DNA from: a virus
IMG/VR virus record: IMGVR_UViG_3300042549_010246
Span: 1 to 64,000 of that record
DNA length: 64,000 nt
Direction: 5' to 3' (one strand)
Made by a program: the position numbers and the translations under genes. Shown here piece after piece: positions 30,251-64,000 of the stretch; the first letter of the stretch is position 1; the number at the start of each line of letters is the position of its first letter. Under the pieces are notes generated by a model. It did not search any database. It was not told the origin of the DNA and saw only the letters and a list, made by a program, of their open reading frames with translations.

Positions 30251-30252
30251 TT

Positions 30253-30978: not shown

Positions 30979-30992
30979 TAACAATAACGGCA

Positions 30993-31022: not shown

Positions 31023-31047
31023 TTTTAACAATTTAATTAATAACGCT

Positions 31048-31167
31048 ATGTCAAACACTAAATCAGGATTCGTACCAATGGCTATTGGAATTGCATTGTC
31101 TCTTGCCACAATTTATGTTATTGCATATTTTGCAGGTAAAGGATGGGAAAAGGCAACCGATAAATAA
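31048..31167 (+). CDS. Small membrane protein (39 aa, not in track)
   Basis: MSNTKSGFVPMAIGIALSLATIYVIAYFAGKGWEKATDK. Confidence 0.7.
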   Translation: MSNTKSGFVPMAIGIALSLATIYVIAYFAGKGWEKATDK

Positions 31168-31169
31168 TT

Positions 31170-31664: not shown

Positions 31665-31674
31665 TAAATAAAAA

Positions 31675-34442: not shown

Positions 34443-34451
34443 TTTAAAAAT

Positions 34452-35273
34452 ATGAGAGAACCATTATTGGGCGTAGCCGTCGGAAAGAAAGGGGTAGGGA
34501 AAACCTTTACAACCAATAGGGTGATTAAACAATATGTGATGGGTAATCCCGCTTCGGGAATTATGCCAAGAAAAGTTTTGATTTTAGATGCAAACGATGA
34601 ATATACTGAGTATAAGGCAATTGCATTAAAGGATTTGATGTTGTTTAGTGTACACCCTTTGGTTGAAGCAAGAAGAATTAGACCGATTCACCCCGACGGT
34701 AAAAAAATGACCTTGGATGATTTGGCTGCTACGTTGAATTATATTTTGGAGGTATTTTCAGGGGGCCTATTATTGATTGAAGACATTAATCGATTTACTT
34801 CTGATTTTATGCCACAAGATTTAATGGGAGCGATTGCGACGAATCGACATCGTGACTTGGACATCATTTTACACTATCAAGGTATAGGTCGTATTGGAAC
34901 GAAGGTATGGCAAAATATCAATTGGCTAAGGATGCATAAAATTACGGAGTCCGCAATCAGGCACGCCAAAAAGTTTGAAGATAAATATGAGATAATCCGT
35001 ATATGCGAATTGATGGTAAACATTCAGTATTTTTTGGGTAACGAAAGGACTTTTCAGTACATCGATTGTGAGAATATGTGTTTTCAAGGTAAGGTGGATG
35101 AAAAACTATTTGCAGATGCTTGTAAGCAATATTTGGAGGAAAATTATCGTAGAATTATTTCACCACTTTTACAGATTCGTGGTGTGGGTGATAAAAAGAA
35201 ATTTACTGCAGATACCGCAATGAAGTCTGAGATGGAAAGATTGCGTAAAATGTATTTAAAAAGGCAAGTGTAA
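34452..35273 (+). CDS. A32/FtsK-HerA-family genome packaging ATPase
   Basis: GKKGVGKT, ILD, LLLIED Walker B, NRH Arg finger and IILHYQ sensor; 273 aa; next to the MCP candidate. Confidence 0.8.
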   Translation: MREPLLGVAVGKKGVGKTFTTNRVIKQYVMGNPASGIMPRKVLILDANDEYTEYKAIALKDLMLFSVHPLVEARRIRPIHPDGKKMTLDDLAATLNYILEVFSGGLLLIEDINRFTSDFMPQDLMGAIATNRHRDLDIILHYQGIGRIGTKVWQNINWLRMHKITESAIRHAKKFEDKYEIIRICELMVNIQYFLGNERTFQYIDCENMCFQGKVDEKLFADACKQYLEENYRRIISPLLQIRGVGDKKKFTADTAMKSEMERLRKMYLKRQV

Positions 35274-35305
35274 GTTACATTAAGTGTACTATACAAATAA
35301 TCGAT

Positions 35306-35332
35306 AAGCCCCCTTGTAAACAGGGGGTTTTT
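35306..35332 (+). terminator. Rho-independent terminator
   Basis: AAGCCCCCT-N7-AGGGGGTTTTT. Confidence 0.75.
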
Positions 35333-35459
35333 CATTTTATATACTTGTATTTTACCATACAAATATTATTTGCTAAAATAATCAATCGATAATAGTACAT
35401 TTTATCAAAGGTATTTTTGAAACAATAAGCAGTCTGAACGGCTTATAAAACAAAAACTT

Positions 35460-35573
35460 ATGAACGTAGAATCTTTAAAAAAAATCGGAGGACAAGTCCT
35501 TTTAATTGTAGTCGGTGTTATTGTTGCTAATGAAATTCAAAAGCAAATTGACAAACGTCGCGCAGCAATGTAA
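35460..35573 (+). CDS. Small membrane protein preceding the MCP (37 aa, not in track)
   Basis: MNVESLKKIGGQVLLIVVGVIVANEIQKQIDKRRAAM. Confidence 0.75.
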   Translation: MNVESLKKIGGQVLLIVVGVIVANEIQKQIDKRRAAM

Positions 35574-35611
35574 ACTCACAAAAAAACAAAAACCTTAAAA
35601 AAACAAAAACT

Positions 35612-36313
35612 ATGAATAATGTCCGTAAATACCTTGCTGACGCACAAAATCGTGCTCACGAGGGCTTCTTGAATGCCGATGGCTTCTTTGATGACGATTT
35701 GAACTTCACCGCAGGTGATGATTTTATGAATGCAAATGGCAACGACGCTATGCCTGCTGCCGCTCCAACCTCACAACCTTACATCATTCAAATTTCTAAC
35801 ACAGGTTCTGCTGTTGCGAATTTCAGTGTATTGGGTTCTTACGAGCAGTTGGGTGATACTGCAGCATTTACTTCGGGTAACTTTATATCAGGAGACGTGA
35901 CTATTTCGTCTGCTATTCCAAACGTAACCTATCAGCAAATGTTGTATCAGTTTATGAACAACCCTTTCAGCACAGGTTTGACTTACATTCAGTCTTCTTC
36001 AAACACACAGTTGTTGGAAACAATCAGTGTGCAAACTAAAGACGCGAATGGTAACGTGGCCCAAAAGCCTTTGGTGCCTACTATTGACCCATATCAGTTT
36101 CAGACTACCGTCCTTGCTCTCCGTTTCGGATACAGAATTGACGGTTACACTAAATTGATTTTGAATTCAATTTTGGCTTCAACCACCGTGAAGTTGTATC
36201 TGTACCCTGCAGACAACATCAACTTGGCTCGTGGATTGTCAGGACGCGCTGTATCAAAAGATTTCAGCAGCCCAGGCATTGTACGTGCTCAAACCGTGAA
36301 AATCCAAGGTTAA
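35612..36313 (+). CDS. Candidate major capsid protein (jelly-roll)
   Basis: Beta-rich with no TM; high-expression codons (TTC/AAC/ATC/CGT); long A-rich leader, own terminator, adjacent ATPase. Confidence 0.55.
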   Translation: MNNVRKYLADAQNRAHEGFLNADGFFDDDLNFTAGDDFMNANGNDAMPAAAPTSQPYIIQISNTGSAVANFSVLGSYEQLGDTAAFTSGNFISGDVTISSAIPNVTYQQMLYQFMNNPFSTGLTYIQSSSNTQLLETISVQTKDANGNVAQKPLVPTIDPYQFQTTVLALRFGYRIDGYTKLILNSILASTTVKLYLYPADNINLARGLSGRAVSKDFSSPGIVRAQTVKIQG

Positions 36314-36334
36314 TCCCTTTTTTACGATTTATAG

Positions 36335-36373
36335 AAAAGGGGCGATGGCACACAGCCTCGCCCCTTTTTTTTT
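36335..36373 (+). terminator. Strong Rho-independent terminator after the MCP
   Basis: AAAAGGGGCGA...TCGCCCC followed by T9. Confidence 0.9.
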
Positions 36374-36395
36374 AATAGGCTAAAATCAAATAATT

Positions 36396-36566
36396 ATGGC
36401 ATATAAAGTCAAATTGGGTAACAAGGATTACTTCTCAGAAGAATTTTCTTCAGAGACGGAAGCAAAAAAAGCAAAGTATTTCGCCATTGTAGGTGCAAAA
36501 ACTTTTCGCAGTGCATCGAAATCGATGGACACAAAAATTGTAAAAGTTGTAAAAAAGAAAAAATAA
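36396..36566 (+). CDS. Small basic protein (56 aa, not in track)
   Basis: MAYKVKLGNKDYFSEE...VVKKKK. Confidence 0.65.
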   Translation: MAYKVKLGNKDYFSEEFSSETEAKKAKYFAIVGAKTFRSASKSMDTKIVKVVKKKK

Positions 36567-36949
36567 TGACAATCTACGAGTATATCGCAAGAAACAATCC
36601 GATGGGTGCTAAAAGAGTAATTGAATCTTTTGGCTATGTGGTAACACAACCTAAAAAAATGGGCGATAACCTTCGTATGTTGGTTGCGCAAGAAGGAGAG
36701 CCCGCTTTAAAAGCAGTCGTTGATTTACATCCTGATAAAGACTTAATTTTAGAAGTTTTCGGGAATAGTCAAAGTGTTAAAGCAACGGGTGAAAATTTCT
36801 TTGGAGCCGATGGTCTACTTCAAAGCGCAGTTTTAAATAACAACCAACAGCAAAATGACAGCAACAATAAAATGGTGCTTCAAACAAACACATTAATTGT
36901 GGCCTTATCACTCCTTGTAGTTGCAGGGTTAATATTAAAGAATCGATGA
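36566..36949 (+). CDS. Virion membrane protein (C-terminal TM)
   Basis: FFGADG motif; TM followed by KNR. Confidence 0.75.
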   Translation: MTIYEYIARNNPMGAKRVIESFGYVVTQPKKMGDNLRMLVAQEGEPALKAVVDLHPDKDLILEVFGNSQSVKATGENFFGADGLLQSAVLNNNQQQNDSNNKMVLQTNTLIVALSLLVVAGLILKNR

Positions 36950-37548
36950 AAAATTTGAAACCTAACGAAATTTACGCTGTATCAGCGATGACAATTGACA
37001 ACAATACTGAAGGGGTAAAAACCCTGATTACAAAGTATGGTGTCATTTTGCCAAACAATGCAAGTCGAAGTGATATTGACAAAGCATTTGCAGCCCTTTT
37101 AAGAAAGAGTAAATCTTTCCGCAACGATTTTGCTGTATTGGCGGCAAATGAAAGTCAGAAGAGCGAAAACTTCTCAAATTTTATGGAATTTTTAGGTATG
37201 TCAGGAAGAGGTATTGGAACAGCAAGTGCTCCTTTAAAAACTCCCGACCCAATTCCTGTAAAAACAAGTTTACCGAACACAACTGCAAAAAAACCAAGTG
37301 CATTTGCGGAAGCATTTGATGCTGACACAATTAGAAACGTCATCAATACGGGATTAAATATTTGGGCTACCCGCTCAGGTACTACAGCCTCAACTACAAA
37401 TGATTTACAATCAGGTAGGGAATCTTTGAATTTACAACCCCAAAGTCAACAAACACGTGGTATTGGAACGACGGGAATCGTTTTGATTTCAATTGGTGCA
37501 CTTGCAGCGGTAGGTGTTTTGATTTATTACCTATCTAAAAACAAATGA
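36946..37548 (+). CDS. Virion membrane protein (C-terminal TM)
   Basis: GIVLISIGALAAVGVLIYYL-SKNK. Confidence 0.75.
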   Translation: MKNLKPNEIYAVSAMTIDNNTEGVKTLITKYGVILPNNASRSDIDKAFAALLRKSKSFRNDFAVLAANESQKSENFSNFMEFLGMSGRGIGTASAPLKTPDPIPVKTSLPNTTAKKPSAFAEAFDADTIRNVINTGLNIWATRSGTTASTTNDLQSGRESLNLQPQSQQTRGIGTTGIVLISIGALAAVGVLIYYLSKNK

Positions 37549-37549
37549 T

Positions 37550-37723
37550 ATGGAAAATAAAGATTATACCAAAGTCGTTGGATACTCTCAAATAGGTGGT
37601 GCCATAGGTATCATTTATGCATTTTCAACAAAATCAGGATTCTTCAAAGGGGTCGGCTATTATTTAGTTGGGTCTTTTGTTGCAGGACTGATTGCATCAG
37701 GTGTGACCGCAGTAAAGAAATAA
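37550..37723 (+). CDS. Small two-TM Gly-rich protein (57 aa, not in track)
   Basis: MENKDYTKVVGYSQIGGAIGII... Confidence 0.7.
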   Translation: MENKDYTKVVGYSQIGGAIGIIYAFSTKSGFFKGVGYYLVGSFVAGLIASGVTAVKK

Positions 37724-37947
37724 TGGCAAACGAATTTCAAGACGCTTTAGACAATGTTAAAGAACTGAGTGGACAATCTACTCACGATACCTTTTTGAAG
37801 CAAAGCAAGCGCATTATGAAGGGCAGTGCTACAGGTCTTGTTGTTGGTTTGATGTATGGATGGTACACGAAAAAAAATATTTATGTAACTGCAATACTTG
37901 GAGTAATTGCAGGAGGCGCGGTTAATTACTTTATTTTCTCAGAATAA
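37723..37947 (+). CDS. Small two-TM protein
   Basis: GLVVGLMYGW...ILGVIAGGAV. Confidence 0.7.
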   Translation: MANEFQDALDNVKELSGQSTHDTFLKQSKRIMKGSATGLVVGLMYGWYTKKNIYVTAILGVIAGGAVNYFIFSE

Positions 37948-37951
37948 AATT

Positions 37952-38359
37952 ATGACTTTAGATTCAGCGATAAAATATAAAGATTTTTCGAACCCAAATA
38001 TAGTTCGTGCAAGGCCAATTAATATACAAATGGCCAATGATGACTATTTTTCTGTAGCGGGTCCTGCGGGCGCAACACAATTAAAACTCACCAAGGTTTT
38101 GACTGTAAAAAATGCTCAGGGTAAAAATACGAATTATGAGGTGGGTTCAGTTGTTTGGGCGTTCCCTATTCAAACCATCGCCAAATCAAATAGTTATGTT
38201 TTTACAACGGAAGGTCAAGGGTATATTTTGACTGTAGGTGTTAACGCTGAAATTTATAATCAAAAAGAGTCTAAAGAGACAAAAAAAGGTTTTCCTTTTT
38301 CTTTAGTCGGATTAGCCTTAATCGGAATAGTAATAATTTATACAATGAAAAAATTATGA
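37952..38359 (+). CDS. Membrane protein (C-terminal TM)
   Basis: ATG at 37952; beta-rich domain plus TM. Confidence 0.7.
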   Translation: MTLDSAIKYKDFSNPNIVRARPINIQMANDDYFSVAGPAGATQLKLTKVLTVKNAQGKNTNYEVGSVVWAFPIQTIAKSNSYVFTTEGQGYILTVGVNAEIYNQKESKETKKGFPFSLVGLALIGIVIIYTMKKL

Positions 38360-38457
38360 AAACAGCGAATGATGAAAAGAAAAAAGGTGGTGCGTTGATG
38401 CTTGTAGGTTTTGCGATGCTCGCCTATGTTGTTTATAAAATAATCGAAAGTAAATGA
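38356..38457 (+). CDS. 33 aa membrane microprotein (not in track)
   Basis: MKTANDEKKKGGALMLVGFAMLAYVVYKIIESK. Confidence 0.65.
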   Translation: MKTANDEKKKGGALMLVGFAMLAYVVYKIIESK

Positions 38458-38678
38458 AAAAAGAATATATTGAAGCCCTCGTTTTAATTGGAGCCATTGG
38501 ATTGGCTATTTACTTAGCAAGTTCTAAGGACTCCGTATTGAAAAGTGCAAAATCAAATTCTCCAACACCGACAGGACCAAAAGGCGGTTTTGAGAATTTC
38601 ACTGCAGACGAATTAACTTATGACGACCATTTGTATGGAAATGCAGATGGAGGATTAAAAGGTTTAACATTTAAATAA
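38454..38678 (+). CDS. Small membrane protein
   Basis: N-terminal TM; YGNADGG. Confidence 0.7.
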   Translation: MKKEYIEALVLIGAIGLAIYLASSKDSVLKSAKSNSPTPTGPKGGFENFTADELTYDDHLYGNADGGLKGLTFK

Positions 38679-38686
38679 ATAAAACT

Positions 38687-38776
38687 ATGACAAAAAACAC
38701 AAAAACAATCTTGACTTTAGCCGCTGTTGCTGCGGTATTGTTCTTCGTTTTCAAGAAGCCAAAAACAGACGCTTAA
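38687..38776 (+). CDS. 29 aa membrane microprotein (not in track)
   Basis: MTKNTKTILTLAAVAAVLFFVFKKPKTDA. Confidence 0.65.
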   Translation: MTKNTKTILTLAAVAAVLFFVFKKPKTDA

Positions 38777-38787
38777 TTGTAATTGAA

Positions 38788-39282
38788 ATGAATCGTGACG
38801 TATTATTAGGCGCGGGGGTCGTTTTGGCCTTCATCGTCCTTGTTAATCGAGCCAAAAAAAACCAAGTAACTGACACCCAAGGTGGCGGTGGTGGTGGTGG
38901 CGGTGGTTTTGGTGGTGGTCCCTTTGTAGGGGGCGTACCCGCAGGACCAATGACTGTCAATACTATTGTTCAACCCGCAGCGCGTCCTGCAAATCAAGGA
39001 CGCTCTTACAACGCTGCTGATGTGACTAAAAGTAAAGACACCACTCCAACTGCAGCAGTTACAAGTTCCGCTCAAGCAAAAGCGATAGAAACAGCCACCA
39101 ACACGGGTGGAATCGTTCCTATCGGTCAAGGGGGAAGCAGTACACCTACCTACAGCACAGGGACAGTGACTCAAGCAGATTTAGCGAAAGGTGTTGCAGG
39201 TAACACTGTATTCAAACCTTTCAGCGGAGATGCTAAATTCTTGGGATTTGTAGGTTCAAGACCTAAATTTGAATTTAATTAA
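38788..39282 (+). CDS. Membrane protein with poly-Gly linker
   Basis: N-terminal TM and G9 tract. Confidence 0.7.
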   Translation: MNRDVLLGAGVVLAFIVLVNRAKKNQVTDTQGGGGGGGGGFGGGPFVGGVPAGPMTVNTIVQPAARPANQGRSYNAADVTKSKDTTPTAAVTSSAQAKAIETATNTGGIVPIGQGGSSTPTYSTGTVTQADLAKGVAGNTVFKPFSGDAKFLGFVGSRPKFEFN

Positions 39283-39283
39283 T

Positions 39284-39565
39284 ATGTTGTCAGCAAATAA
39301 ACTATACAAGGAATCAGGTACCACTTTGTCTTTCAAAGAATGGTTGGAGCGTGAAAAGGCAAAAGGCAAATTCATTCCCAACGTGGAAGCGATGGAAGAG
39401 TTTGTGAATGCCGATGGTGGAACTTCAGAGCAAGCCTCTGAGCAACCCGAAATCACAGCGAAATCAGTTGAGAATAAACAGATGTTTACCTCGATTGCTC
39501 GAGTAGGTTTAATTGTTGTATTGACATACTTCGTTTATCGAACTATCAAAAATGAAATTAAGTAA
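39284..39565 (+). CDS. Small membrane protein
   Basis: FKEWLEREK, FVNADGG and C-terminal TM. Confidence 0.7.
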   Translation: MLSANKLYKESGTTLSFKEWLEREKAKGKFIPNVEAMEEFVNADGGTSEQASEQPEITAKSVENKQMFTSIARVGLIVVLTYFVYRTIKNEIK

Positions 39566-39776
39566 TACTCAAATAAAGCGCATCATTATTGCAGGGGGAT
39601 TTTTCTTCCTGCTTTTGCGCTTTAGAGGATACTTAAATCCCTCAAAAGAAACATTGTCGGCAAAAGACGATAGTGTTTCTGCAAATGGTACCAAATCGGT
39701 AATCGACAGAGCGATTCACAAAGTAAAAAGTGGCGCGGTAAAAGTTGCAAGCACACCATCTGAAATAAAAAACTGA
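39552..39776 (+). CDS. Small membrane protein
   Basis: N-terminal TM. Confidence 0.65.
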   Translation: MKLSNTQIKRIIIAGGFFFLLLRFRGYLNPSKETLSAKDDSVSANGTKSVIDRAIHKVKSGAVKVASTPSEIKN

Positions 39777-48419: not shown

Positions 48420-50183
48420 ATGACAAACATAGCAACCCCTTTATTTAGAGTAGAGTATGAAAAAGACGGCAACAAAATTTTTGTTTACTATCAAAATGAA
48501 AAACCAATTGATGTAAGTATATCCGTAGCAGACATCGATTCAAAACACGCGATTTATGCATTTGACTCTCATTTTAGAGATTATTCAGGCTGTTGGAATG
48601 TTCCTGTACCTGTAGCCGCTTTGAATCATTACAATCGGACAGGATACTTTAGGGGATATGAGGTTTCGATTTACACTTCGGATAGACTTACTCTGTTGGA
48701 ACAACATACGATTTGGTATAATGAAAACGCTCCAAAATTTGATAGAGTATTATTCCCTACTGACCCTTGGAATTTGACTTGGATTAATTACACGGAAATG
48801 TTTGTTGAAGACTTCTACAACCCGCTTCAAATGAACATCAATGGAGTTTGTTTGGATATTGGCGCAAATGATGGTCTATACACAGAATATTTGCTTCGTA
48901 ATGGAGCAGAACGGGTTTATGCAGTAGAATGTGACCCCCGTAGTATAAAGTTCCTTAACAAGCGTTTTAATGGCGATAAAAGGGTAGTTGTGGTTGACAA
49001 AGGATTATGGAATGCAAACCAAAATGGTGTAAAGTTGGCTTACAAAGAGGACACGAGCACAGTTTCATCTATCAAGACTGAAGTTCATCACTTTGATGAA
49101 AACAATTATTTTTACATTGATACTTGGGATTATGCGACTTTGAAGAGCAAAATGAATATCAGTAAAGTTGATTTTTTCAAGATTGATATTGAAGGTGCTG
49201 AATATGAAGTTTTCGAATCAATGACCGATGATGACATTTGTGAAATTGAAGGTTTTATGGTCGAGATTCATTGGAATTCAAATGGCCGTATTTATGGTAT
49301 CACTGATAGACTTGAGAAATTAGGTTATTCAATTGAACTTCGCAGACATACGGTGGACAATGCCGTAGTAGAGAACCGTGACGAATGGAAAGATTACGAC
49401 CTATGCACATTCTACGCTTCAAAAAAAAAAGAGCCACGGAAGTTTAGTTTAAGCATCCATCATTTGCAAACGAGTCTTTTTACTGATGTTGAAAGGCAAA
49501 GTCGTGACAAAATTGATTATTTAATTCATTTGTTGAAGAAAGATTCTCGTTTTAGTGAGGTCTATTGGAGTCGTCATATCAATACTCCTTGGAAGGAATT
49601 ACCAACTAAAGAGAATTGTAAAAGACCAAATGCGTTGTCGATGGAAAAATTTCCAAATGGCATAAATGAATATGGAGAAACTGCGCTGACACCCGCTCAC
49701 TATGGCTGCTTTAGAGCATTTAATGATGCTATTCAGATGCATTTCAACAAGGACTATTCAGCGACGTTGATATTTGAGGGTGACGCGGATATTCGAGATG
49801 TGTATTCGTTTATTGAATGCCTATACCTTGCCCTGTGTGAGGCAGACAAAAATGAAATAGATTTCATTTCATTTGGAGGAGCGTATCATTTGGAGACAGG
49901 CGAATTATTAGCACATCCCGTGGAGAGAATTGATTCCTTAAATTTTGGGTGGATTTCAAAACACGTTCCATTTGCACATTCGATAATTATTCCTCAGAGA
50001 TACATCAAACAGATGATGCACGCCTTTGCAACTGAGCCTTGGGATGTTGCTGATTTATTTTTTATGAATCATTTTAATATGCATCCAAACAGGAGACAAT
50101 TTGTAAGCGAAATTCAACTGAGTCATCAAATTGATGGATATTCATTAATCGATAAAAAAGTCAAAAATTACTTAATCAAATGA
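48420..50183 (+). CDS. FkbM methyltransferase fused to a GT25-like glycosyltransferase
   Basis: LDIGANDG and FKIDIEGAE; HYGCF.A...LIFEGDA. Confidence 0.75.
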   Translation: MTNIATPLFRVEYEKDGNKIFVYYQNEKPIDVSISVADIDSKHAIYAFDSHFRDYSGCWNVPVPVAALNHYNRTGYFRGYEVSIYTSDRLTLLEQHTIWYNENAPKFDRVLFPTDPWNLTWINYTEMFVEDFYNPLQMNINGVCLDIGANDGLYTEYLLRNGAERVYAVECDPRSIKFLNKRFNGDKRVVVVDKGLWNANQNGVKLAYKEDTSTVSSIKTEVHHFDENNYFYIDTWDYATLKSKMNISKVDFFKIDIEGAEYEVFESMTDDDICEIEGFMVEIHWNSNGRIYGITDRLEKLGYSIELRRHTVDNAVVENRDEWKDYDLCTFYASKKKEPRKFSLSIHHLQTSLFTDVERQSRDKIDYLIHLLKKDSRFSEVYWSRHINTPWKELPTKENCKRPNALSMEKFPNGINEYGETALTPAHYGCFRAFNDAIQMHFNKDYSATLIFEGDADIRDVYSFIECLYLALCEADKNEIDFISFGGAYHLETGELLAHPVERIDSLNFGWISKHVPFAHSIIIPQRYIKQMMHAFATEPWDVADLFFMNHFNMHPNRRQFVSEIQLSHQIDGYSLIDKKVKNYLIK

Positions 50184-52330
50184 GAATAGCACATATTCAA
50201 CCAAGCGTAATTTCAGTCCCCCCTAACGGATGGGGGGCAATTGAAAAAATCATTTGGGAATACAAAATGGTTTTGAATCAGTTAGGACACGTCTGCGAAG
50301 TAGTCAATTTGCAGGATTTGAAGGCTGAAGAATGGGATATCATCCATTGCCATATGTTTGACCAAGCATTATGGTTGGCTGAACAAAAAGTTCCATATTT
50401 TTATTCGCACCACGACCATCATTCGATGGTTTGGGGTGAAGAAAGTGCTAATTATCAATTAAATCTAAAAGCAATGAGACTTGCTGAGATTGCCTTTGTT
50501 CACGCACAAAGTAGTATTGAGATGTTTAAAAATATCCCTTATTATTTGAGTCACGGTGTGAATACTGAATTCTTTGATTTTATAAGGCCGAAAAATATTG
50601 ATGAACCGAATATTATTATTGTCGGGAACAATGGTTTGGCGGGAACTGAGCAAGTCTTTGACCGAAAAGGTTTCAGGTATGCAATTGAGGCCGCACGTGA
50701 ATTAAAATGGACAATTACTATGGTTGGTCCCAAAGCAACCCAAGAACAGTTTCTGAAGGAAAATCCCGATTTGCAGTATGAAAAACTAAGGTTGGTTTTT
50801 GATGCGGACGAGGAGCGGTTGAAGAAAGAATTACAGAATGCTCATTTAATGATTCACGCTACGTTTGTAGAGGCAGGTCATCCACCTTTAACACCTTTGG
50901 AAGCAATGTCTTGCGGGGTCCCTGTAATTGGTACACCAATGGGTATTGATGTGCCTCAAATAATATGTGAAAGAACTACCGAAAGCGTAGTAGAAGGAAT
51001 TAAACAATTCGTATTTCAAAGAAATTCATTAATTGCAGAAGCACGCCTAATTGCTGAAAATTACGATTGGAAAATTATTGTTGAAAATAATTTATTGAAA
51101 TGGTATTTTCAGGTCTTGGACCGAAACAATATGGCTAATACGGCCCGTAGAATTTACCATCAATCGACCATAAATAAAGTGCAAGACACTATGATGTTCA
51201 AGTACTTAGATGGTGCGAGAGTGGATTTGGTTGGTAGTAGCGATAAAACGTATAAGGCCGAACTTTCGGTTCGGGATGAGCACTTAGGAATTATTTTCAG
51301 TGCAGATTTAAAATGCGGTATGTATGCTCAGGGTGCAATGAAATATCATAGATATTGGGAATGGAAAATTACGGATGAAAAAGGGAACGAATTTTTACAT
51401 CCATATGATGCGACGGACAAACGTGTTTATGTGGCGATTGAAAGTTCAAGTTTAGGAGACTCTTTGGCTTGGGTCCCAATAGTTGATGAGTTTAGAAAGG
51501 TGCACAATTGCAAAATGATTATCAGCACTTTTTGGAACGATATGTTCAGGGATGCATACCCTGAAATGGAATTTATCAGGGCGGGAACACCCGTTAATAA
51601 TATTTATGCAATGTACAGGATTGGTTGGTATTACGAGAACGACGGTTTAGAGGTACATTATGGACATCACTCACGCGATTTCCGCAAATTTTCTTTGCAA
51701 GGTACAGCCTGTGATATTTTAGGTCTTCCTGACATCGAAATAAAACCAAAATTAAAGGAAATTGAAGGGCAAAAAAATGATAAAAAATATGTAGTTATTG
51801 CACCTCACGCTTCGAGCCATTGTAAATATTGGCACAACGAAGAAGGATGGTCTAAAGTTGTCGAATTTTTAAACGAGTTAGGTTATGAGGTTTGGAACAT
51901 CTCAAAGGAGTCTGCATCAAGCGATTGGGAGAATTCTAAGTTGCCAAAAAATGCATTAAAAAACGTAATTGATAAGACGGGAGACATACATATAGACGAA
52001 AGGATTTCTCAAATAAAATCCTCATCTTTGTTTATTGGATTAGGAAGCGGACTTTCTTGGTTGGCTTGGGCCTGTGATACACCTGTTGTTCTGATAAGTG
52101 GTTTCTCACGGCCTATAAGCGAATTTAGTGATTGCACCCGCGTTTTTAATCAAAATGTGTGTAATGGATGCTTTAACGATTACAGGCTTGACGCGGGTAA
52201 TTGGAATTGGTGCCCTAAATATGAAAATACTGACAAAATGTATGAATGCAGTAAGTCAATTACACCTGAACAGGTAATTGACGCAATTAGGAAAACACTA
52301 AACAAGCACCAAACAGCACCCGATGGCTAA
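50180..52330 (+). CDS. GT4 fused to Aah/TibC-like protein O-heptosyltransferase
   Basis: VPPNGWGAIE and LEAMSCG; SLGDSLAWVP, IGLGSGLSWLAW, LISGFS and CNGC...WCP...ECSK. Confidence 0.85.
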   Translation: MRIAHIQPSVISVPPNGWGAIEKIIWEYKMVLNQLGHVCEVVNLQDLKAEEWDIIHCHMFDQALWLAEQKVPYFYSHHDHHSMVWGEESANYQLNLKAMRLAEIAFVHAQSSIEMFKNIPYYLSHGVNTEFFDFIRPKNIDEPNIIIVGNNGLAGTEQVFDRKGFRYAIEAARELKWTITMVGPKATQEQFLKENPDLQYEKLRLVFDADEERLKKELQNAHLMIHATFVEAGHPPLTPLEAMSCGVPVIGTPMGIDVPQIICERTTESVVEGIKQFVFQRNSLIAEARLIAENYDWKIIVENNLLKWYFQVLDRNNMANTARRIYHQSTINKVQDTMMFKYLDGARVDLVGSSDKTYKAELSVRDEHLGIIFSADLKCGMYAQGAMKYHRYWEWKITDEKGNEFLHPYDATDKRVYVAIESSSLGDSLAWVPIVDEFRKVHNCKMIISTFWNDMFRDAYPEMEFIRAGTPVNNIYAMYRIGWYYENDGLEVHYGHHSRDFRKFSLQGTACDILGLPDIEIKPKLKEIEGQKNDKKYVVIAPHASSHCKYWHNEEGWSKVVEFLNELGYEVWNISKESASSDWENSKLPKNALKNVIDKTGDIHIDERISQIKSSSLFIGLGSGLSWLAWACDTPVVLISGFSRPISEFSDCTRVFNQNVCNGCFNDYRLDAGNWNWCPKYENTDKMYECSKSITPEQVIDAIRKTLNKHQTAPDG

Positions 52331-55300
52331 AAACATTTTAATAACACCCTATAGGAATTCCACGAATCCTTTAGAGTTGCCGAAAATAGACTTTATTAAT
52401 GGCTCGACTGCCATTACACTTCAAGTTGAAGAAACCTCACAGTCGTTAACTTTTGTTGGTTCTGCAGGCACACTGTTGCAAATCAATAATGATTTAACAG
52501 GCACGACAATATCAACCAAAAACATTGCAATTACAGGTGTAATTAAAAACACAGGTATAACCTCGAATTCGGGGCTCAATGATTTTGTGGTAGTTGATAT
52601 TGCTACGGGTCAGTTTTATTACCGTAGTGCACCAACGGGCACTTCAGGTAGTTCAGGTCAAAGTGGAACAAGCGGAACCTCGGGAGCAAACGGCTCTTCG
52701 GGCACCTCGGGAGCAAGCGGTTCAAGTGGTACTTCAGGAGCAAATGGCTCATCAGGTACTTCGGGAGCAAACGGCTCAAGTGGTACTTCAGGAGTGAACG
52801 GTACATCGGGAACATCGGCATCAAGTGGTACATCAGGAGCAAATGGCTCTTCGGGTACTTCAGGTGATTCAGGTAGTTCAGGTACGTCAGGAGCAAATGG
52901 CTCATCAGGCACTTCGGGAGCAAACGGTTCATCGGGAACATCGGGCGCAAACGGCTCAAGTGGAACATCGGGTAACTCGGGTTCATCGGGAACATCGGGT
53001 GCAAATGGTTCATCAGGTACGTCAGGTGAAAGTGGTTCTTCAGGTACTTCAGGGTCGAATGGTTCATCAGGAACTTCGGGTTCAAGCGGAACTTCAGGGA
53101 ACTCAGGCTCTTCAGGTACGTCGGGTGACTCAGGTTCTTCGGGTACTTCAGGTGCTAACGGCACTTCAGGAACTTCGGGTGAAAGTGGCTCAAGTGGAAC
53201 ATCGGGTAATTCAGGTTCGTCAGGAACATCGGGTAACTCAGGTTCATCAGGCACATCAGGAGCAAACGGTTCTTCGGGAACATCAGGTGCAAGTGGTGCA
53301 GAAATTACAGATGGTTGGGATTGGGGAACTCCTGTTAACAGTACGAAAATGTATTCAAGTAATGGAAACTTGGATTCATCAACTGTATTATTAAATATTT
53401 CGGAAACCTCTTTATCATTGACCGATTATGCAAGTCAATTTGCATTGATGGGAGTTGGGTCTCGAATCACTACAAGAGGGGGCCTTTTTGCGGCAAATGT
53501 TACAAATTGGGAAGTTACCTCAGTTACAGATGCGGGAACGTATTACGAATTCGGAGTTGTATATCTTTCAGGTACACAATGGACTCCAACTTCAGGAGAT
53601 GATATTTTATGTGATTTTGCAATTGCAGGTAAATCGGGTTCAAGTGGAACAGCGGGTACCTCAGGGCAAAATGGCTCTTCGGGTACTTCAGGAGCGAATG
53701 GTACATCAGGTACTGCAGGAACAACGGGTTCATCAGGTACTTCAGGTGCAGGTGTAGCAAACTATTATGCTCAATATAGCAGTAGCCAATCACAACCATT
53801 ATTGGCTGTAAATACACCTCAGGTAGTTACTTATGACACGGTTGAAATTGAAAATGGTATTTCGTTTTCAGGTGGACAAATCACTGTTCAATACTCGGGT
53901 ATTTACGAATTTACTTTTTCTCCTCAAGTAGAAAAAACGCAAGGTGGTACAGCAGTAAACGTCGACTTTTTTATAAGGAAAAATGGCTTTGATGTTATTC
54001 GAACGGATTCAATACTCGGATTAGTATCTAATAGTTCGACACAACTTCCGTTTGTTGCATTGACGTTGGAATTATTGCAAAATGATTTTATTGAATTATT
54101 ATTTGCATCAACCACCACCTTTGTACAGTTAACTGCGGTTGGCGCAAAGACAACACCATTTATTGCGCCCGCAGCACCATCAATTATTGTTTCATTGAAA
54201 AATATTGGTGTAGCCGCAGTTGCATATACATCAACATCAGGTACTTCGGGTCAAAGTGGTACTGCGGGAGTTTCGGGGTCTTCAGGAACATCAGGTTCTA
54301 CAGGTTCAAGCGGAACGTCAGGAGAAAGCGGCACAAGTGGTACATCAGGTTCTACAGGTTCAAGTGGTACATCGGGAGAAAATGGTTCAAGTGGAACTTC
54401 GGGTTCTACAGGTTCAAGCGGTACATCGGGAGAATCAGGTTCAAGCGGAACTTCAGGAGAAAACGGTTCAAGCGGAACTTCGGGTTCTGCAGGTTCAAGT
54501 GGAACATCAGGTTCTACAGGTTCAAGCGGAACTTCAGGAGAAAGCGGCTCAAGCGGTACATCAGGGTCTTCAGGAACATCGGCATCAAGTGGCACATCAG
54601 GTTCTACAGGTTCGAGCGGTACATCGGGTTCTGCAGGTTCAAGTGGAACTTCAGGTTCTACAGGTTCATCAGGAACTTCAGGAGAAAGCGGCTCAAGTGG
54701 AACTTCAGGTTCTACAGGTTCATCAGGAACTTCAGGAGAAAGCGGCTCAAGCGGTACATCAGGTGAAAGTGGTTCAAGCGGTACATCAGGTGATAGCGGT
54801 TCAAGCGGAACTTCAGGAGAAAGCGGTTCAAGCGGAACTTCAGGAGAAAGCGGTTCAAGTGGAACTTCAGGAGAATCAGGTTCAAGTGGAACTTCAGGTA
54901 CATCGGCATCGAGTGGAACGTCAGGTTCTACAGGTAGTTCGGGCACTTCGGGAGAAAATGGTTCAAGTGGAACGTCAGGTTCTACAGGGACTTCGGGTTC
55001 TTCAGGAAGTTCAGGTACTTCAGGAGAAAATGGCTCATCAGGTACAAGCGGTGAATCAGGAACCTCGGGAACTTCAGGTTCGAGCGGTAGTACGGGTACA
55101 TCAGGTTCTGCGGGCACAAGTGGCAGCACAGGAACCTCAGGTTCTACAGGTTCATCAGGAACAAGCGGTTCTTCAGGTACTTCGGGCGAAAATGGCTCAA
55201 GCGGTACTTCAGGTTCAGCGGGCTCAAGCGGCACTTCGGGCGAAAATGGCTCAAGTGGTACGTCAGGTTCATCAGGGACTTCGGGTTCTACAGGGACAAG

Positions 55301-58300
55301 CGGTGAATCAGGAACGTCGGGAACTGCGGGTTCAAGCGGTAGTACAGGTACATCAGGTTCTGCGGGCACAAGTGGTAGCACAGGTACTTCGGGTTCTGCG
55401 GGTTCAAGCGGAACAAGCGGCTCTTCAGGCACTTCGGGCGAAAATGGCTCAAGCGGTACTTCAGGTTCAACGGGCTCAAGCGGAACAAGCGGTAGCACAG
55501 GAACTTCAGGTTCTACGGGTACAAGTGGTTCAAGCGGTAGCACAGGCTCAAGTGGGTCTTCGGGCGAATCAGGAACTTCAGGTTCTACGGGCACTTCGGG
55601 TTCTACAGGTTCTTCAGGAACAAGTGGTGAATCAGGAACATCAGGCACTACGGGTTCAAGCGGTTCGACAGGTTCTTCAGGAACGTCGGGCTCAAGTGGT
55701 ACATCGGCATCAAGTGGAACGAGCGGCTCATCAGGTATAAATGGTTCTTCAGGAACTTCAGGAAGCACAGGTACTTCGGGTTCTGCAGGAACTTCAGGTG
55801 CAAATGGCTCTTCAGGAACAAGCGGAAGCGCAGGTTCAAGTGGAACAAGTGGTTCTACGGGTTCTTCAGGCACTTCGGGTAGTTCAGGAACGTCCGCATC
55901 AAGCGGTTCAAGTGGTTCAAGCGGCTCTACGGGGTCAAGCGGAACTTCAGGTTCATCAGGAACTTCAGGCGCAAATGGCTCTTCAGGAACAAGCGGAAGT
56001 GCGGGTTCAAGTGGAACAAGCGGTTCAACAGGTTCTTCAGGGACATCAGGTTCAAGTGGTACATCCGCATCAAGCGGCTCAAGCGGTTCAACAGGTTCTT
56101 CAGGAACATCAGGAAGCGCAGGCTCATCAGGAACTTCAGGCGCGAATGGTTCTTCAGGAACAAGCGGTTCATCAGCAACATCGGGTTCAGCAGGTTCAAG
56201 TGGTTCTGCGGGTACTTCAGGTAGTTCAGCAACATCAGGTTCTTCAGGGTCTTCAGGCACTTCAGGTAGTTCAGGTACCTCAGGGGCTAACGGTTCATCG
56301 GGAACAAGTGGCTCATCAGGAACGAGTGGTTCTACAGGTTCAAGCGGCACATCGGGTGCCAATGGTTCATCGGGAACATCGGGTTCTTCAGGAACAAGCG
56401 GTTCTGCGGGTTCAAGTGGCTCTACAGGCTCATCGGGAACATCAGGCTCTTCAGGAACAAGTGGTTCTGCGGGGTCAAGTGGCTCTACGGGCTCTTCGGG
56501 AACAAGCGGCTCTTCGGGTTCAAGTGGAACATCAGGTGCAAATGGTTCGAGCGGAACTGCAGGTTCAAGTGGTACATCAGGTTCTTCAGGAACAAGCGGA
56601 AGCGCGGGTTCAAGTGGAACATCAGGTGCAAATGGCTCTTCAGGTACTGCAGGTTCGTCAGGAACAAGCGGAAGCGCAGGCTCAAGTGGTTCTGCAGGTA
56701 CGTCGGGAGCAAATGGCTCTTCAGGGACTTCGGGTAGTTCAGGTTCAAGTGGCTCCACAGGTTCAAGTGGAACATCGGGAAGTTCAGGTTCTACAGGAAC
56801 TTCAGGGTCTTCAGGAACATCGGCATCAAGTGGAACTTCAGGTTCTTCAGGAAGTGCAGGAACGTCAGGAGCAAATGGTTCTTCAGGAACATCAGGGTCA
56901 AGCGGTAGTTCGGGTTCAACAGGTTCGTCAGGAACATCGGGTGCAAATGGCTCATCGGGAACAAGTGGTTCTGCGGGTTCAAGTGGCTCTACAGGTTCTT
57001 CAGGAACATCAGGGTCTTCAGGAACTTCAGGTTCTACAGGTTCAAGCGGTTCTGCAGGTACATCAGGTAGTTCGGCAACTTCAGGCTCTTCAGGTTCTTC
57101 AGGAACAAGCGGAAGTGCAGGAACATCAGGTGCAAATGGCTCTTCAGGGACTTCGGGTTCATCAGGAACAAGCGGAAGCACGGGTTCAAGCGGTTCTGCG
57201 GGTACATCAGGTGCAAACGGCTCTTCGGGCACTTCAGGCTCCACAGGTTCAAGCGGAACTTCAGGTTCTGCAGGTTCAAGTGGTTCTACAGGCTCTTCAG
57301 GAACATCGGGTTCTACAGGTTCAAGTGGTTCAACGGGCTCTTCAGGGACTTCGGGTTCATCAGGAACAAGCGGAAGCGCGGGTTCAAGCGGTTCTGCGGG
57401 CACTTCAGGTGCCAACGGCTCTTCAGGAACTTCAGGCTCTTCAGGTACAAGCGGAAACGCAGGCTCTTCAGGTACATCAGGTTCATCAGGCTCAAGTGGT
57501 TCTGCAGGGACAAGCGGTTCTACAGGTTCATCAGGAACAAGTGGCTCTGCAGGTTCAAGTGGAACATCAGGTTCAGCGGGTTCAAGTGGTTCAACAGGTT
57601 CCTCAGGTACTTCAGGCGCAAATGGCTCTTCAGGTACTTCAGGCTCTTCAGGAACTTCGGGAAGCACAGGTTCAAGTGGCTCTTCAGGGTCTACAGGCTC
57701 ATCAGGAACTTCAGGTTCATCAGGAACGAGTGGTTCTACGGGTTCAAGCGGTTCTACAGGTTCTTCAGGAACAAGCGGTAGCGCAGGTTCATCGGGAACA
57801 TCGGGCGCAAATGGTTCGAGCGGAACATCGGGCTCATCAGGAACTTCAGGGTCTACAGGTTCTTCAGGAACTGCAGGCTCATCAGGTACTTCAGGAACAA
57901 GAGGTTCTTCAGGTACAAGCGGAAGTACGGGTTCAAGTGGTTCTACAGGTTCTTCAGGTACTTCAGGCTCAAGCGGCACAAGTGGAAGCGCAGGCTCTTC
58001 GGGCTCTGCAGGTACTTCAGGTGCAAACGGGTCATCAGGAACGTCAGGTTCAAGCGGTACAAGTGGTAGCACGGGCTCAAGTGGTTCTTCAGGTTCTACA
58101 GGCACTTCAGGAACGGCAGGCTCTTCAGGAACAAGTGGAAGCGCGGGTTCAAGCGGTTCAACAGGTTCTTCAGGGTCAAGCGGAACAGCAGGCTCGTCAG
58201 GAACATCAGGAGCGAATGGGTCCTCAGGCACTTCAGGTTCAAGTGGTTCTTCAGGTTCAACAGGTTCTTCGGGAACATCAGGGTCTTCAGGAACAAGCGG

Positions 58301-61300
58301 AAGCGCAGGTTCAAGCGGTTCTACAGGTTCTTCGGGCTCAAGTGGTACTGCAGGTTCTTCAGGAACATCGGCATCAAGTGGTAGCGCAGGAACTTCAGGT
58401 TCATCAGGAACTTCGGGTGCAAACGGTTCAAGCGGAACGAGCGGAAGCGCAGGTTCATCAGGAACCTCGGGCTCTTCAGGTTCTGCAGGAACTTCAGGTA
58501 TAAATGGTTCTTCAGGAACATCGGGGTCTTCAGGGACATCGGGTTCTTCAGGTTCAAGTGGTTCAACAGGCTCAAGTGGAACAAGCGGTAGCGCGGGTTC
58601 AAGCGGTTCTACAGGTTCATCGGGCTCAAGCGGAACTGCGGGTTCATCAGGAACTTCAGGCGCAAATGGTTCTTCAGGAACGAGCGGAAGCGCAGGTTCA
58701 TCAGGAACATCAGGTTCAAGCGGAACATCAGGAACTGCAGGTTCAAGCGGAACGTCGGGTACAAGAGGTTCAAGTGGAACGAGTGGCAGCACAGGTTCAA
58801 GCGGTTCTACGGGTTCTTCAGGCACCTCAGGTTCTTCAGGAACTTCAGGAGCAAACGGTTCATCAGGGACTTCAGGTTCAAGCGGAACAAGTGGTTCTGC
58901 GGGCTCTTCAGGCACTTCGGGTTCAAGCGGAACAAGCGGTAGCACAGGGTCAAGTGGGTCAACAGGTTCAAGTGGCACAAGCGGTAGCGCAGGTTCTTCA
59001 GGAACATCAGGTTCTGCAGGTTCCTCAGGTACTTCAGGCGCAAATGGTTCAAGCGGAACAAGCGGAAGCGCAGGTTCTTCGGGTTCTACGGGCTCATCAG
59101 GTACCTCAGGTTCAAGCGGAACAAGCGGTAGCGCAGGCTCAAGCGGTTCTACAGGTTCAAGTGGAACATCAGGCTCGGCAGGTTCAAGTGGCTCAACAGG
59201 TTCATCAGGTTCTTCAGGAACTGCAGGCTCTTCAGGAACATCAGGAGCAAACGGCTCAAGTGGCACATCGGGCTCTTCAGGAAGCGCGGGCTCTTCGGGT
59301 TCTACAGGAAGTTCAGGAACCTCAGGTTCAAGTGGAACGAGCGGTAGCACAGGTTCTTCGGGTTCTACGGGCTCTTCAGGCACATCAGGCTCAAGCGGAA
59401 CATCCGCGTCAAGTGGTTCTTCGGGTACATCGGGTTCCGCAGGTTCTTCAGGAACTTCGGGAGCAAATGGCTCTTCAGGAACTTCGGGCTCTGCAGGAAG
59501 TGCGGGCTCAAGCGGTTCAACAGGCTCTTCAGGCACATCAGGCTCAAGCGGAACATCAGGAAGTACGGGTTCAAGTGGCTCTACGGGTTCGTCAGGAACT
59601 TCGGGTTCTTCAGCAACATCAGGCTCTGCGGGTTCTTCGGGAACAGCAGGCTCGTCAGGTTCTTCGGGAACTTCGGGCGCAAACGGCTCAAGTGGTACTT
59701 CAGGTTCTGCAGGTTCTACAGGCTCAAGTGGTACTTCGGGCTCCTCAGGAACTTCGGGCACAGCGGGTTCAAGTGGTACTTCGGGCACAGCGGGTTCAAG
59801 TGGTACTTCAGGCACAAGGGGTTCGAGCGGTACTTCAGGAAGTACAGGCTCAAGCGGTTCTACGGGTTCATCAGGAACGAGTGGTTCTTCAGGCACCTCG
59901 GGTGCAAACGGTTCAAGCGGAACTTCGGGTTCTTCAGGTAGTGCGGGGTCAAGTGGCTCTACAGGCTCATCAGGAACTTCAGGTTCAAGCGGTACAAGTG
60001 GTAGTACAGGTTCTTCAGGCTCTACGGGTTCTTCAGGGACATCAGGTTCATCAGCAACTTCGGGCTCTGCAGGTTCGTCAGGGACTTCAGGAAGTGCGGG
60101 TTCATCAGGTACTTCGGGGGCAAATGGGTCGAGCGGAACAAGCGGTAGCGCAGGTTCTTCGGGTTCTACAGGTTCATCAGGAACCTCAGGTTCAAGCGGA
60201 ACAAGCGGAAGTGCAGGCTCAAGCGGTTCAACGGGTTCAAGCGGAACATCAGGCTCTGCAGGTTCAAGTGGAACGAGCGGTTCTGCAGGTTCTTCAGGAA
60301 GTGCGGGCTCATCAGGTACATCAGGTGCAAATGGTTCAAGCGGAACAAGCGGAAGCGCGGGTTCTTCAGGAAGCACAGGTTCATCAGGAACATCGGGTTC
60401 TTCAGGAACAAGCGGTAGCACGGGTTCTTCGGGGTCTACAGGCTCAAGCGGAACAAGCGGTAGCGCAGGTTCTTCAGGAACATCGGCATCAAGTGGAAGT
60501 TCAGGAAGCGCAGGTACATCAGGAAGTTCAGGAACATCGGGGGCCAACGGCTCAAGCGGTACTTCAGGTTCTGCAGGTAGTGCGGGCTCAAGTGGTTCTA
60601 CAGGGTCAAGTGGTACTTCGGGTTCATCAGGAACAAGTGGTAGCACGGGTTCAAGTGGTTCTACAGGCTCATCAGGAACTTCAGGTTCGAGTGGAACAAG
60701 TGGTAGTGCAGGTTCAAGCGGAACTTCAGGTTCTTCGGGAACTTCGGGCACAGCGGGGTCAAGCGGTACTTCAGGAACAAGAGGTTCGTCAGGAACTTCA
60801 GGTTCGACAGGTTCATCAGGTTCTACGGGCTCATCAGGTTCTACAGGAACTTCAGGCTCAAGCGGTTCGTCAGGAACTTCAGGAGCAAACGGTTCAAGTG
60901 GTACAAGCGGTAGTGCGGGCTCATCAGGTTCTACAGGTTCTTCAGGCACATCAGGCTCAAGCGGTACATCAGGAAGCGCGGGTTCAAGCGGCTCTACGGG
61001 GTCATCAGGAACATCAGGTTCTTCAGCAACTTCGGGTTCTGCAGGTTCATCAGGAACTGCAGGCTCTTCAGGTTCTTCGGGAACTTCAGGTGCAAATGGC
61101 TCAAGCGGTTCAAGCGGAACAAGTGGTAGTTCAGGTTCATCAGGCTCTACAGGTTCTTCAGGAACATCAGGTTCAAGCGGAACAAGCGGAAGCGCGGGTT
61201 CTTCGGGTTCAACGGGTTCAAGCGGTACAAGCGGCTCTTCAGGAACATCGGCATCAAGCGGAAGTTCAGGAAGCGCAGGCACATCAGGTAGTTCGGGTAC

Positions 61301-64000: not shown

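Follow-up and report, generated by a model that had tools for sequence, protein, structure and literature searches.

Collagen-like proteins occur both in bacteria and in their viruses. Bacterial collagens have Pro in 19-31% of the X positions of their Gly-X-Y triplets (PMC8968730), and Pro and charge pairs are their customary stabilisers (PMC8968730, PMC3368898). One of them, BclA, is a glycosylated collagen-like filament and provides a precedent for a helix of this kind that is stabilised by sugars (PMC8968730). In viruses, a phage collagen of about 18 residues is listed in PMC8968730 after Bamford and Bamford (1990), and the EPclA-D proteins of E. coli O157 prophages are collagen-like phage fibres encoded in the virus structural region, with Pro in about half of the X positions of their shafts, charge pairs and a melting temperature of 42 C without sugars (PMC3368898). 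Modular fibres of the tailless polinton-like viruses end in an S74 domain, can be as long as 3.9k amino acids and can contain collagen repeats (PMC12220804). Here we describe a 16-kb gene of the IMG/VR virus record IMGVR_UViG_3300042549_010246, which encodes a giant protein built mainly of proline-free Gly-X-Y triplets and lies directly behind a gene for a TibC-type glycosyltransferase.

Thus, collagen-like phage fibres, modular fibres that end in S74, the glycosylated BclA with its C1q-like head and the heptosyltransferases of the BAHT family are already known. TibC, a member of this last family, heptosylates Ser, not Thr, on a repetitive adhesin substrate (PMC4358343). We read the new gene, with moderate confidence, as encoding a glycosylated, collagen-like, homotrimeric virion fibre that serves as a long tether for an uncultured freshwater virus of bacteria.

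Gene and domain organisation

The sequence examined is a window of 64,000 nt (bases 1-64000) of the record, which is a single contig of 84,705 bp without N. A preliminary description of the window had proposed a giant open reading frame (ORF) concealed by the window edge. This is borne out by the ORF listing and the translation: frame 3 is open from 52323 to the end of the window (3,892 amino acids, no stop), and the long ORFs displayed over the same DNA in the other frames and on the minus strand are shadows of it. The description had also suggested that frame 3 be translated from 52323 and extended along the contig. Extended in this way, the frame closes at contig base 68339, giving a complete gene at 52323-68339 (plus strand) of 16,017 bp and 5,338 amino acids. 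The product has a mass of 438 kDa before processing and the gene takes up 18.9% of the contig.

Over all 16,017 bases there are zero stops and zero frameshifts, and the N-terminal, C1q-like and S74 domains all lie in frame 3. We conclude that 52323-68339 is a real, complete and coherent gene, in which domains can be recognised at the two ends as well as in the interior (Table 1). It encodes 1,599 Gly-X-Y triplets in three runs, the longest of which has 1,511. More than 1,080 in-register triplets free of Pro had been reported for the window; we count 1,084 there (amino acids 640-3892), and the main array has zero Pro in the window as well as over its full extent on the contig.

Table 1. Domains of the giant fibre gene and the five genes that precede it; positions beyond 64000 lie on the contig outside the window.
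Feature	Position	Strand	Basis
Giant fibre ORF	52323..64000 in window (aa 1-3892), on to contig 68339	+	ORF listing
N-terminal domain, candidate virion anchor	52323..52637, aa 1-105	+	Conserved in relatives' fibres
Collagen-like block 1, 74 triplets, mostly (GTS-GAN-GSS)n	52638..53303, aa 106-327	+	Triplet count
Globular domain, fold unassigned	53304..53627, aa 328-435	+	Conserved in G001, partly in G003
Collagen-like block 2, 14 triplets	53628..53753, aa 436-477	+	Triplet count
C1q/TNF-type jelly-roll domain	53754..54239, aa 478-639	+	AF2 model, Foldseek, VIA
Main collagen-like array, 1,511 in-register triplets	54240..64000, on to contig 67838; aa 640-5172	+	Triplet count
Tip and Peptidase_S74 chaperone	contig 67839-68336; aa 5173-5338	+	PF13884, PHROG matches
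Short collagen-like fibre gene, 294 aa, Pro-free G-S/T-S triplets, C-terminal globular domain	44785..45669	+	Pfam Collagen E 2.7e-17, PHROG tail-fibre families
Second short fibre-like gene, 255 aa	45666..46433	+	phrog_28536 E 3e-27, phrog_17490 E 8.5e-24
Glycosyltransferase (GT1/GT4)-FkbM methyltransferase fusion	46430..48409	+	Pfam Glycos_transf_1, Methyltransf_21; TIGR01444 81 bits vs cut-off 37.7
FkbM methyltransferase, uncharacterised C-terminal half	48420..50183	+	Methyltransf_21 E 9.9e-14; TIGR01444 67 bits
GT4 fused to TibC/AAH-type protein serine O-heptosyltransferase (BAHT)	50180..52330	+	TIGR04414, PDB 4RAP

Composition of the array and selection on its glycines

Position 1 of the 1,511 triplets of the main array is Gly in 1,489 cases and Ala in the other 22, so that Ala is the sole substitute for Gly. 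Ser and Thr occupy 92% of the X and 82% of the Y positions and make up about 55% of all residues of the array; the fibre as a whole contains 2,118 Ser. Among the 4,533 residues, over which the register is unbroken, there are no Pro, Lys, Cys or aromatic residues, 16 Arg and 21 Asp plus Glu. The Arg residues are confined to 16 'GTR' markers, which bound 15 super-repeats of 45-351 amino acids.

The array is also zoned along its length. All 20 Glu are found within the first 470 residues (amino acids 668-1103), the super-repeats shorten from about 351 to 144 amino acids and lengthen again near the C-terminus, and a GNTGAAGSS-type unit is found only close to the end of the array.

The tandem units of the array share 65-85% DNA identity. 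Based on 858 aligned triplets from adjacent super-repeats, the substitution fractions at codon positions 1, 2 and 3 are 0.000, 0.013 and 0.437 for the Gly codon, 0.125, 0.058 and 0.396 for the X codon, and 0.234, 0.125 and 0.420 for the Y codon. Strong divergence at synonymous sites thus goes together with retention of Gly and an intact register. This pattern is one of selection at the protein level, not of fresh duplication or noise, and every third Gly is under purifying selection. The array cannot have arisen by chance and is no trivial perfect repeat. As in the collagen family, Gly recurs at every third residue over long runs and trimerisation domains flank the repeats (C1q-type before the main array, S74 after it).

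The same gene, with the same virion location, could instead encode a heavily O-glycosylated mucin-like or polyproline-II brush whose chains are joined as a trimer at two places alone, the C-terminal tip and the C1q-like node. The result would be a cloud of hydrated glycans, tens of nm in diameter, that could make the particle sticky, serve it as a shield or hide it from enzymes or grazers. The lack of Pro and the near lack of charge would suit a brush, the Ser/Thr content together with the nearby protein O-glycosyltransferase and the many sugar enzymes resembles what is seen for mucin domains, and duplications of 9- and 27-bp units might account for part of the register. However, a strict spacing of Gly by three would be unnecessary in a disordered linker, whereas here the first two positions of the Gly codon are near-invariant and the third is 44% diverged. 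In addition, no register-breaking indel is found in the 4,533 residues or in the orthologs, and the C1q/NC1-like and S74 domains on either side are classic partners of trimeric rods. The strict periodicity of Gly, kept under selection, argues against a brush, which we regard as the main rival reading, though a rather unlikely one.

Predicted trimerisation domains inside and at the end of the fibre

An internal C1q-like domain had been proposed for this protein, and modelling upholds the proposal. With an alignment of 54 sequences, the AlphaFold2 (AF2) model of amino acids 478-639 reaches a predicted local distance difference test score (pLDDT) of 95.6; a single-sequence AF2 model was discarded (pLDDT 38.8). 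Foldseek returns a probability of 1.0 with BclA, F-BclA, C1q and the NC1 domains of collagen VIII/X on top. Structural alignment of the Foldseek matches with VIA-align gives Z scores of 14.8-17.1 over 125-139 residues, at a root-mean-square deviation (rmsd) of about 2 A, for F-BclA, BxpB, ExsFA, BclA, the C1q domain of Caprin-2, C1q heads and collagen VIII/X NC1. The ten-strand jelly roll is recovered against F-BclA, BxpB, BclA and C1q in particular (VIA; Z 16-17, rmsd 1.8-2.4 A, 125-134 residues), the C-terminal domains of BclA and F-BclA being the nearest. In solved proteins, C1q/NC1-type domains are trimerisation domains that stand beside collagen helices.

At the level of sequence the domain is far from these proteins. 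Its identity to solved members is 9-19% (16-19% for BclA and F-BclA), no Pfam family (C1q included) or PHROG matches it at E <=0.01, and the GenBank phage collection yields only seven weak protein matches. Nonetheless, HMMER finds 2,830 relatives, mostly at the C-terminal end of their proteins. The likeness to known members is thus one of fold only, and the domain has a large unnamed sequence family of its own. Two proteins of 1.1-1.3k amino acids (P0010 and P0011) have collagen, the C1q-like domain, collagen and S74 in the same order as the giant fibre.

The C-terminus is recognised by Peptidase_S74 (PF13884) with 60.8 bits against a cut-off of 22, over residues 94-153 of the last 189. These 189 residues also match PHROG tail-fibre families, the best being phrog_8215 (E 4.9e-44). 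At the expected S74 cleavage position, amino acids 5241-5248, we find the motif FSTS|DKRFK, which we take to be the conserved serine cleavage site of the S74 consensus. By these matches, the C-terminus is identified as a Peptidase_S74 intramolecular chaperone, which is typical of trimeric phage fibres.

Taken as a whole, the earlier interpretation stands for the giant ORF, the internal C1q-like domain and the marks of a fibre on a virus contig. Its length estimate, made from the window alone, is raised below.

A TibC-type glycosyltransferase gene coupled to the fibre gene

The gene immediately upstream of the fibre scores 302.5 bits against TIGR04414, the NCBIfam equivalog for the autotransporter strand-loop-strand O-heptosyltransferase (cut-off 200), and covers positions 7-373 of the 374 of the model. 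It also matches the TibC structure (PDB 4RAP) at E 4.5e-54. All four Cys of the TibC iron finger (339, 342, 358 and 370; numbering from PMC4358343) align to Cys in the upstream enzyme. The end of the gene overlaps the ATG of the fibre by 8 bases, and the two genes are predicted to be translationally coupled. The order of the upstream genes is kept in three related contigs (G001, G003 and G005). No autotransporter gene was seen beside the TibC-like enzyme, whose coupled neighbour is the fibre; the enzyme belongs to the BAHT family, and its presumed substrate is of a new kind. The two short fibre genes further upstream share an N-terminal 'EGNGLA' motif.

To place this arrangement in context, the TibC-like domain was searched in IMG/VR, which gave 80 loci (L036-L115), 67 of them distinct. 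We defined a paired ORF as one with <2% Pro, rich in Ser/Thr and with at least 30 Gly-X-Y triplets, located within 10 kb or within the fetched flanks. Such an ORF is found near 28 of the 67 distinct loci and near 17 of the 29 with full flanks, counts that are descriptive and come without a background control. In 11 of the 28 paired loci the two genes are directly adjacent, which would not be expected by chance. Contigs with paired loci range in size from 12 to 436 kb, and further giants are encoded among them: L112 (at least 3,195 amino acids, 955 triplets), L086 (at least 2,856 amino acids, 832 triplets) and L111 (2,735 amino acids, 705 triplets). More generally, uncultured viruses commonly carry TibC-like transferase genes, among them viruses with contigs of 100-436 kb.

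At least 11 glycosyltransferase or FkbM methyltransferase genes, about 12 kb in sum, are present on the contig. Genes of this kind (GT2, GT1/GT4, galactosyltransferase-like and FkbM) lie at 501-5262 (minus strand), 10974-11609, 12555-13781 and 46430-52330, and at contig 83997-84638. The sugar toolkit is unusually large for a virus of 85 kb; a GDSL acylhydrolase is also encoded (contig 79495-80133). Counted with the fibre gene, the sugar genes would bring the share of the contig devoted to fibre structure to about one third.

Evidence for a place on the virion

The N-terminal domain (amino acids 1-105) has no match in Pfam, PHROGs, NCBIfam or the GenBank phage proteins, and the globular domain at amino acids 328-435 has none in Pfam, PHROGs or NCBIfam. 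Nonetheless, related contigs encode fibres in which the N-terminal domain is kept at 62-91%. It is also 33-42% identical to the N-termini of metagenomic proteins of 3.8-4.5k amino acids that have a different repetitive shaft. In four such proteins (P0003, P0160, P0161 and P0162), which share the N-terminal anchor, the shaft repeat is of the SAGTAGTATNAG type, and the C-terminal ends of the P0003-type giants resemble the ORF at 45666-46433. Giant fibres with one anchor and exchangeable shafts thus look like a trait of this virus group.

The fibre gene ends a morphogenesis-like module that is rich in membrane proteins, and follows two short fibre genes. In the block from 29 to 46.4 kb (29168-46433), 24 of the 37 ORFs have a membrane-type hydrophobic segment.

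We also considered that the protein may have no place on the virion and may instead, in the course of infection, be released or put on display, perhaps forming a coat or matrix that surrounds the infected cell or lysate. The N-terminal domain belongs to no known family, which leaves room for such a role, and BclA-like proteins are filaments of cell surfaces. Nevertheless, no hydrophobic stretch resembling a signal peptide is evident by eye at the N-terminus, and S74 ends are typical of virion fibres and spikes (PMC12220804). The gene comes last in the module, next to two further fibre genes, and this too speaks for the virion, as does the occurrence of the same N-terminal domain in other giant fibre genes with different shafts. 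We consider a non-virion protein improbable.

Array length in assemblies and relatives

The 16-kb gene has a single stretch of exact DNA repeat of at least 77 bp, 145 bp long and near the 3' end. In principle, a short-read assembler with k >=77 can resolve everything except the copy number of one 135-bp unit. Sequence from 51-61 kb recurs in 20 lake-water metagenome runs, which contain 53-95% of the 31-mers sampled from it, and there are no RNA data sets among the runs listed as containing these k-mers. Logan contigs of four runs match the flanks and inner pieces of the gene with few or no differences, and one lake sample has a 9-bp in-frame insertion in the array.

Relatives in IMG/VR provide an independent measure of length. 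On G001 (74.7 kb, with proteins 88-95% identical), the ortholog has 4,184 amino acids, no Pro and the same ends. Its blocks have 56, 17 and about 1,141 triplets, compared to 74, 14 and 1,511 here, and all the length variants are in register. On G005 the fibre frame is open for at least 4,412 amino acids and runs off the contig, and G003 encodes a fibre version of 733 amino acids, behind which another collagen-like gene lies at the end of the contig. These independent assemblies indicate that the giant size of the fibre recurs in relatives. In the database searches for giant relatives we found giants that end in S74 without collagen (P0157 and P0158) and collagen-like proteins of at most 174 triplets (P0002).

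Could the length be an assembly artefact, with repeats expanded or mis-joined, or the gene a decaying relic? The Logan contigs of the four runs do break up inside the array, with many spurious joints that amount to repeat noise, and none spans it; the 145-bp repeat, for its part, leaves the copy number of the 135-bp unit uncertain. Apart from this repeat, however, the gene is unique at k = 77 and intact over its whole length, and independent relatives have the 4,184-amino-acid ortholog and the open frame of at least 4,412. The strong asymmetry between codon positions, a sign of ongoing selection, argues against a relic. We judge an artefact or a relic to be very improbable. Least credible of all is an array folded back into compact polyproline-II or polyglycine-II bundles, as in the snow-flea antifreeze protein or phage gp38-type adhesins: glycine with a period of three is a signature of such bundles too, but known examples are tens of residues long, not thousands, and the array lacks the closely and regularly spaced turns or caps that they would need, its only periodic markers being the GTR triplets every 45-351 residues.

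Virus type, host and genome context

No Pfam or PHROG match to terminase, portal, HK97 capsid or tail families was found in searches that covered most ORFs of at least 300 amino acids (except 5244-6167) and many smaller ones. The module upstream of the fibre encodes, in the stretch 33465-37548, a stand-alone P-loop ATPase of 273 amino acids (34452-35273) with weak HerA/AAA similarity, followed by small proteins. A capsid candidate of 233 amino acids and ORFs of 764, 550 and 1,094 amino acids have no match in Pfam, PHROGs or NCBIfam, and the ESM Atlas gave no usable lead for the 233-residue protein (best score 0.76, no model). Searches of the GenBank phage collection found neither DNA that matches 28-52.3 kb nor a protein that matches the ATPase. 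PHROGs have no match for the genes downstream of the fibre, and the contig ends carry no direct or inverted terminal repeat. Together, the gene content is a hint that the virus is tailless, contains a membrane and infects freshwater Bacteroidota; its genome would be very large for this kind.

Genes for RecT, a PDDEXK nuclease, a RelA/SpoT domain and winged helix-turn-helix (wHTH) regulators are present on the contig and point to a bacterial host. A eukaryotic host was considered and set aside as less likely because of the RecT/PDDEXK pair, the RelA/SpoT domain, the TibC-type enzyme and the operon-style overlapping genes. Shine-Dalgarno cores are depleted upstream of the genes (5 of 82, compared to a background of 12%). 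In a scan of host genomes, only three metagenome-assembled genomes (MAGs) contain relatives of the ATPase: one of Sediminibacterium, an unclassified Bacteroidetes bin and an alphaproteobacterial bin. The collagen-like ORFs of these three MAGs are located on other contigs than the ATPase. These relatives provide only a hint of a Bacteroidota host.

Several other genes were noted on the contig. A second, different proline-free collagen-like tract, of about 50 Gly-Ser-Gln triplets, is found in a protein of 476 amino acids (17020-18450), directly followed by a MoxR-like AAA ATPase (18459-19862). At 28038-29153, DUF2958 is fused to a RelA/SpoT-type nucleotide pyrophosphokinase domain, with which the virus may make or mimic alarmones. 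At contig 71546-74567 (L002 5546-8567, minus strand), RecT and the PDDEXK-like nuclease make up a recombination module of the phage type, with a methyltransferase-like gene between them. Finally, a tRNA-Met is encoded at contig 83912-83984.

Proposed assembly and function of the fibre

For a glycosylated, homotrimeric collagen-like fibre on the virion, we propose the following order of events. In a first step, the TibC-like enzyme would O-glycosylate Ser residues of the chains in the cytoplasm, and the GT4/GT1 domains and FkbM methyltransferases would extend and methylate the sugars. In a second step, the S74 domain and the C1q-like node would align three chains in register, so that the array could zip into a collagen-type triple helix in which sugars and hydration replace proline as the stabiliser. 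Besides BclA, worm cuticle collagen with its glycosylated threonine is a second precedent for stabilisation of this kind. In a third step, S74 would cleave itself off after Ser5243 and expose a tip of about 70 residues. In the fourth step the N-terminus would dock on the particle, and in the fifth a flexible thread of about 1.3-1.4 micrometres would act as a fishing line that widens the capture radius for the sparse, small hosts of lakes.

Taking a rise of 0.286 nm per residue, we estimate that the three blocks, if they are helical, would be about 63, 12 and 1,296 nm long, for a total of about 1.4 micrometres, above the 0.9 micrometre that had been estimated from the window alone. Reported persistence lengths of collagen range from about 15 to 100 nm, at which the mean reach of the thread would be about 0.2-0.5 micrometre, or several capsid diameters. 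Such a reach would fit a capture line for sparse hosts. Of the roles proposed earlier, host capture is plausible, and nothing seen here speaks for or against buoyancy and shielding.

Several points weigh against a sugar-stabilised triple helix on the virion. The main array is devoid of proline and nearly so of charge pairs; it thus lacks the imino acids or charge pairs that are typical of the collagen family, although not strictly defining for it. Glycosylation of the fibre is a step that we infer from the gene neighbourhood, and the known substrates of TibC are beta-helical autotransporters, not collagen-like chains. Attachment to the virion through the N-terminus is likewise one that we infer, for a domain without known family. 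An in-line node between two helices would be geometrically awkward, because both chain ends of C1q-type domains are at the base, on the same face. As for the total length, no contig from the four runs bridges the array, and the value rests on the original assembly and on the relatives.

A more specific version of the fibre reading can be offered only tentatively. The fibre may represent a distinct class of collagen, a proline-free and nearly uncharged Gly-Ser/Thr triple helix that is stabilised by sugars through a TibC-type transferase encoded next to the fibre gene. Its thread of about 1.3-1.4 micrometres would be the longest virus-encoded rod known to us, and the particle may be that of a tailless, membrane-containing freshwater Bacteroidota virus whose genome, at 85 kb, is unusually large.

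If these readings are true, bacterial viruses build appendages more than 10 times their own diameter, and models of how often viruses meet the sparse, tiny bacteria of fresh water would change. An array with no proline, hydroxyproline or charge pairs but with a dedicated serine glycosyltransferase would make the minimal requirements of the triple helix testable. BAHT enzymes, so far tied to virulence adhesins, would gain a new substrate class in the viral fibres with which they are paired here. A proline-free collagen that is tunable by sugars and needs no hydroxylase would also be an attractive biomaterial.

Comparison with known systems

PRD1 is a tailless, membrane-containing phage. Its spike protein P5, of a few hundred residues, is anchored at the vertex by its N-terminus and then has a short collagen-like segment and a trimeric head of the TNF type. 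By description, the same order of parts is found in the first 640 residues of the giant fibre; here, however, the array of 4,533 residues and the S74 domain come after the head. Annelid cuticle collagens, such as those of Riftia, form micrometre-long helices in which galactose on Thr replaces hydroxyproline; they still contain proline and are secreted. For a collagen poor in proline and stabilised by sugars there is no better precedent, although these are animal proteins with no common descent with the viral fibre.

With BclA of Bacillus anthracis and with F-BclA, the fibre has in common a hydroxyl-rich Gly-X-Y stalk and a trimer domain of the C1q/TNF jelly-roll type. The C1q-like domain is C-terminal in BclA and internal here, and the fibre described here is viral and ends in a phage-type S74 domain. 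The glycosyltransferases of BclA belong to a family other than the TibC type. In Bcl proteins, the collagen regions have 27-1,158 residues and contain proline (PMC8968730), whereas the array here has 4,533 residues and none.

Like TibC and TibA or AAH and AIDA-I, the locus pairs an enzyme gene with an adjoining gene for a very Ser-rich, repetitive surface protein, and the enzyme passes the equivalog model with the iron-finger Cys and the N-terminal barrel kept. It differs in that the presumed substrate is a collagen-like viral fibre and the enzyme is fused to a GT4 domain. Compared to the EPcl fibres, the shaft is about 1,600 triplets long, has no Pro, is almost uncharged and is paired with glycosylation genes. 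With the fibres of polinton-like viruses, it shares the S74 end (PMC12220804).

Our search of the literature turned up no described collagen-like viral fibre of such length, no paper on giant viral collagens that lack proline, and none on the pairing of a phage collagen with a heptosyltransferase. New here are the scale, with 1,511 unbroken triplets in 5,338 amino acids, the absence of proline together with the near absence of charge, the internal C1q-like node, and the coupling to a TibC-type enzyme that recurs across many viral contigs. The fibre could exceed one micrometre, which would make it far longer than any phage fibre described so far.

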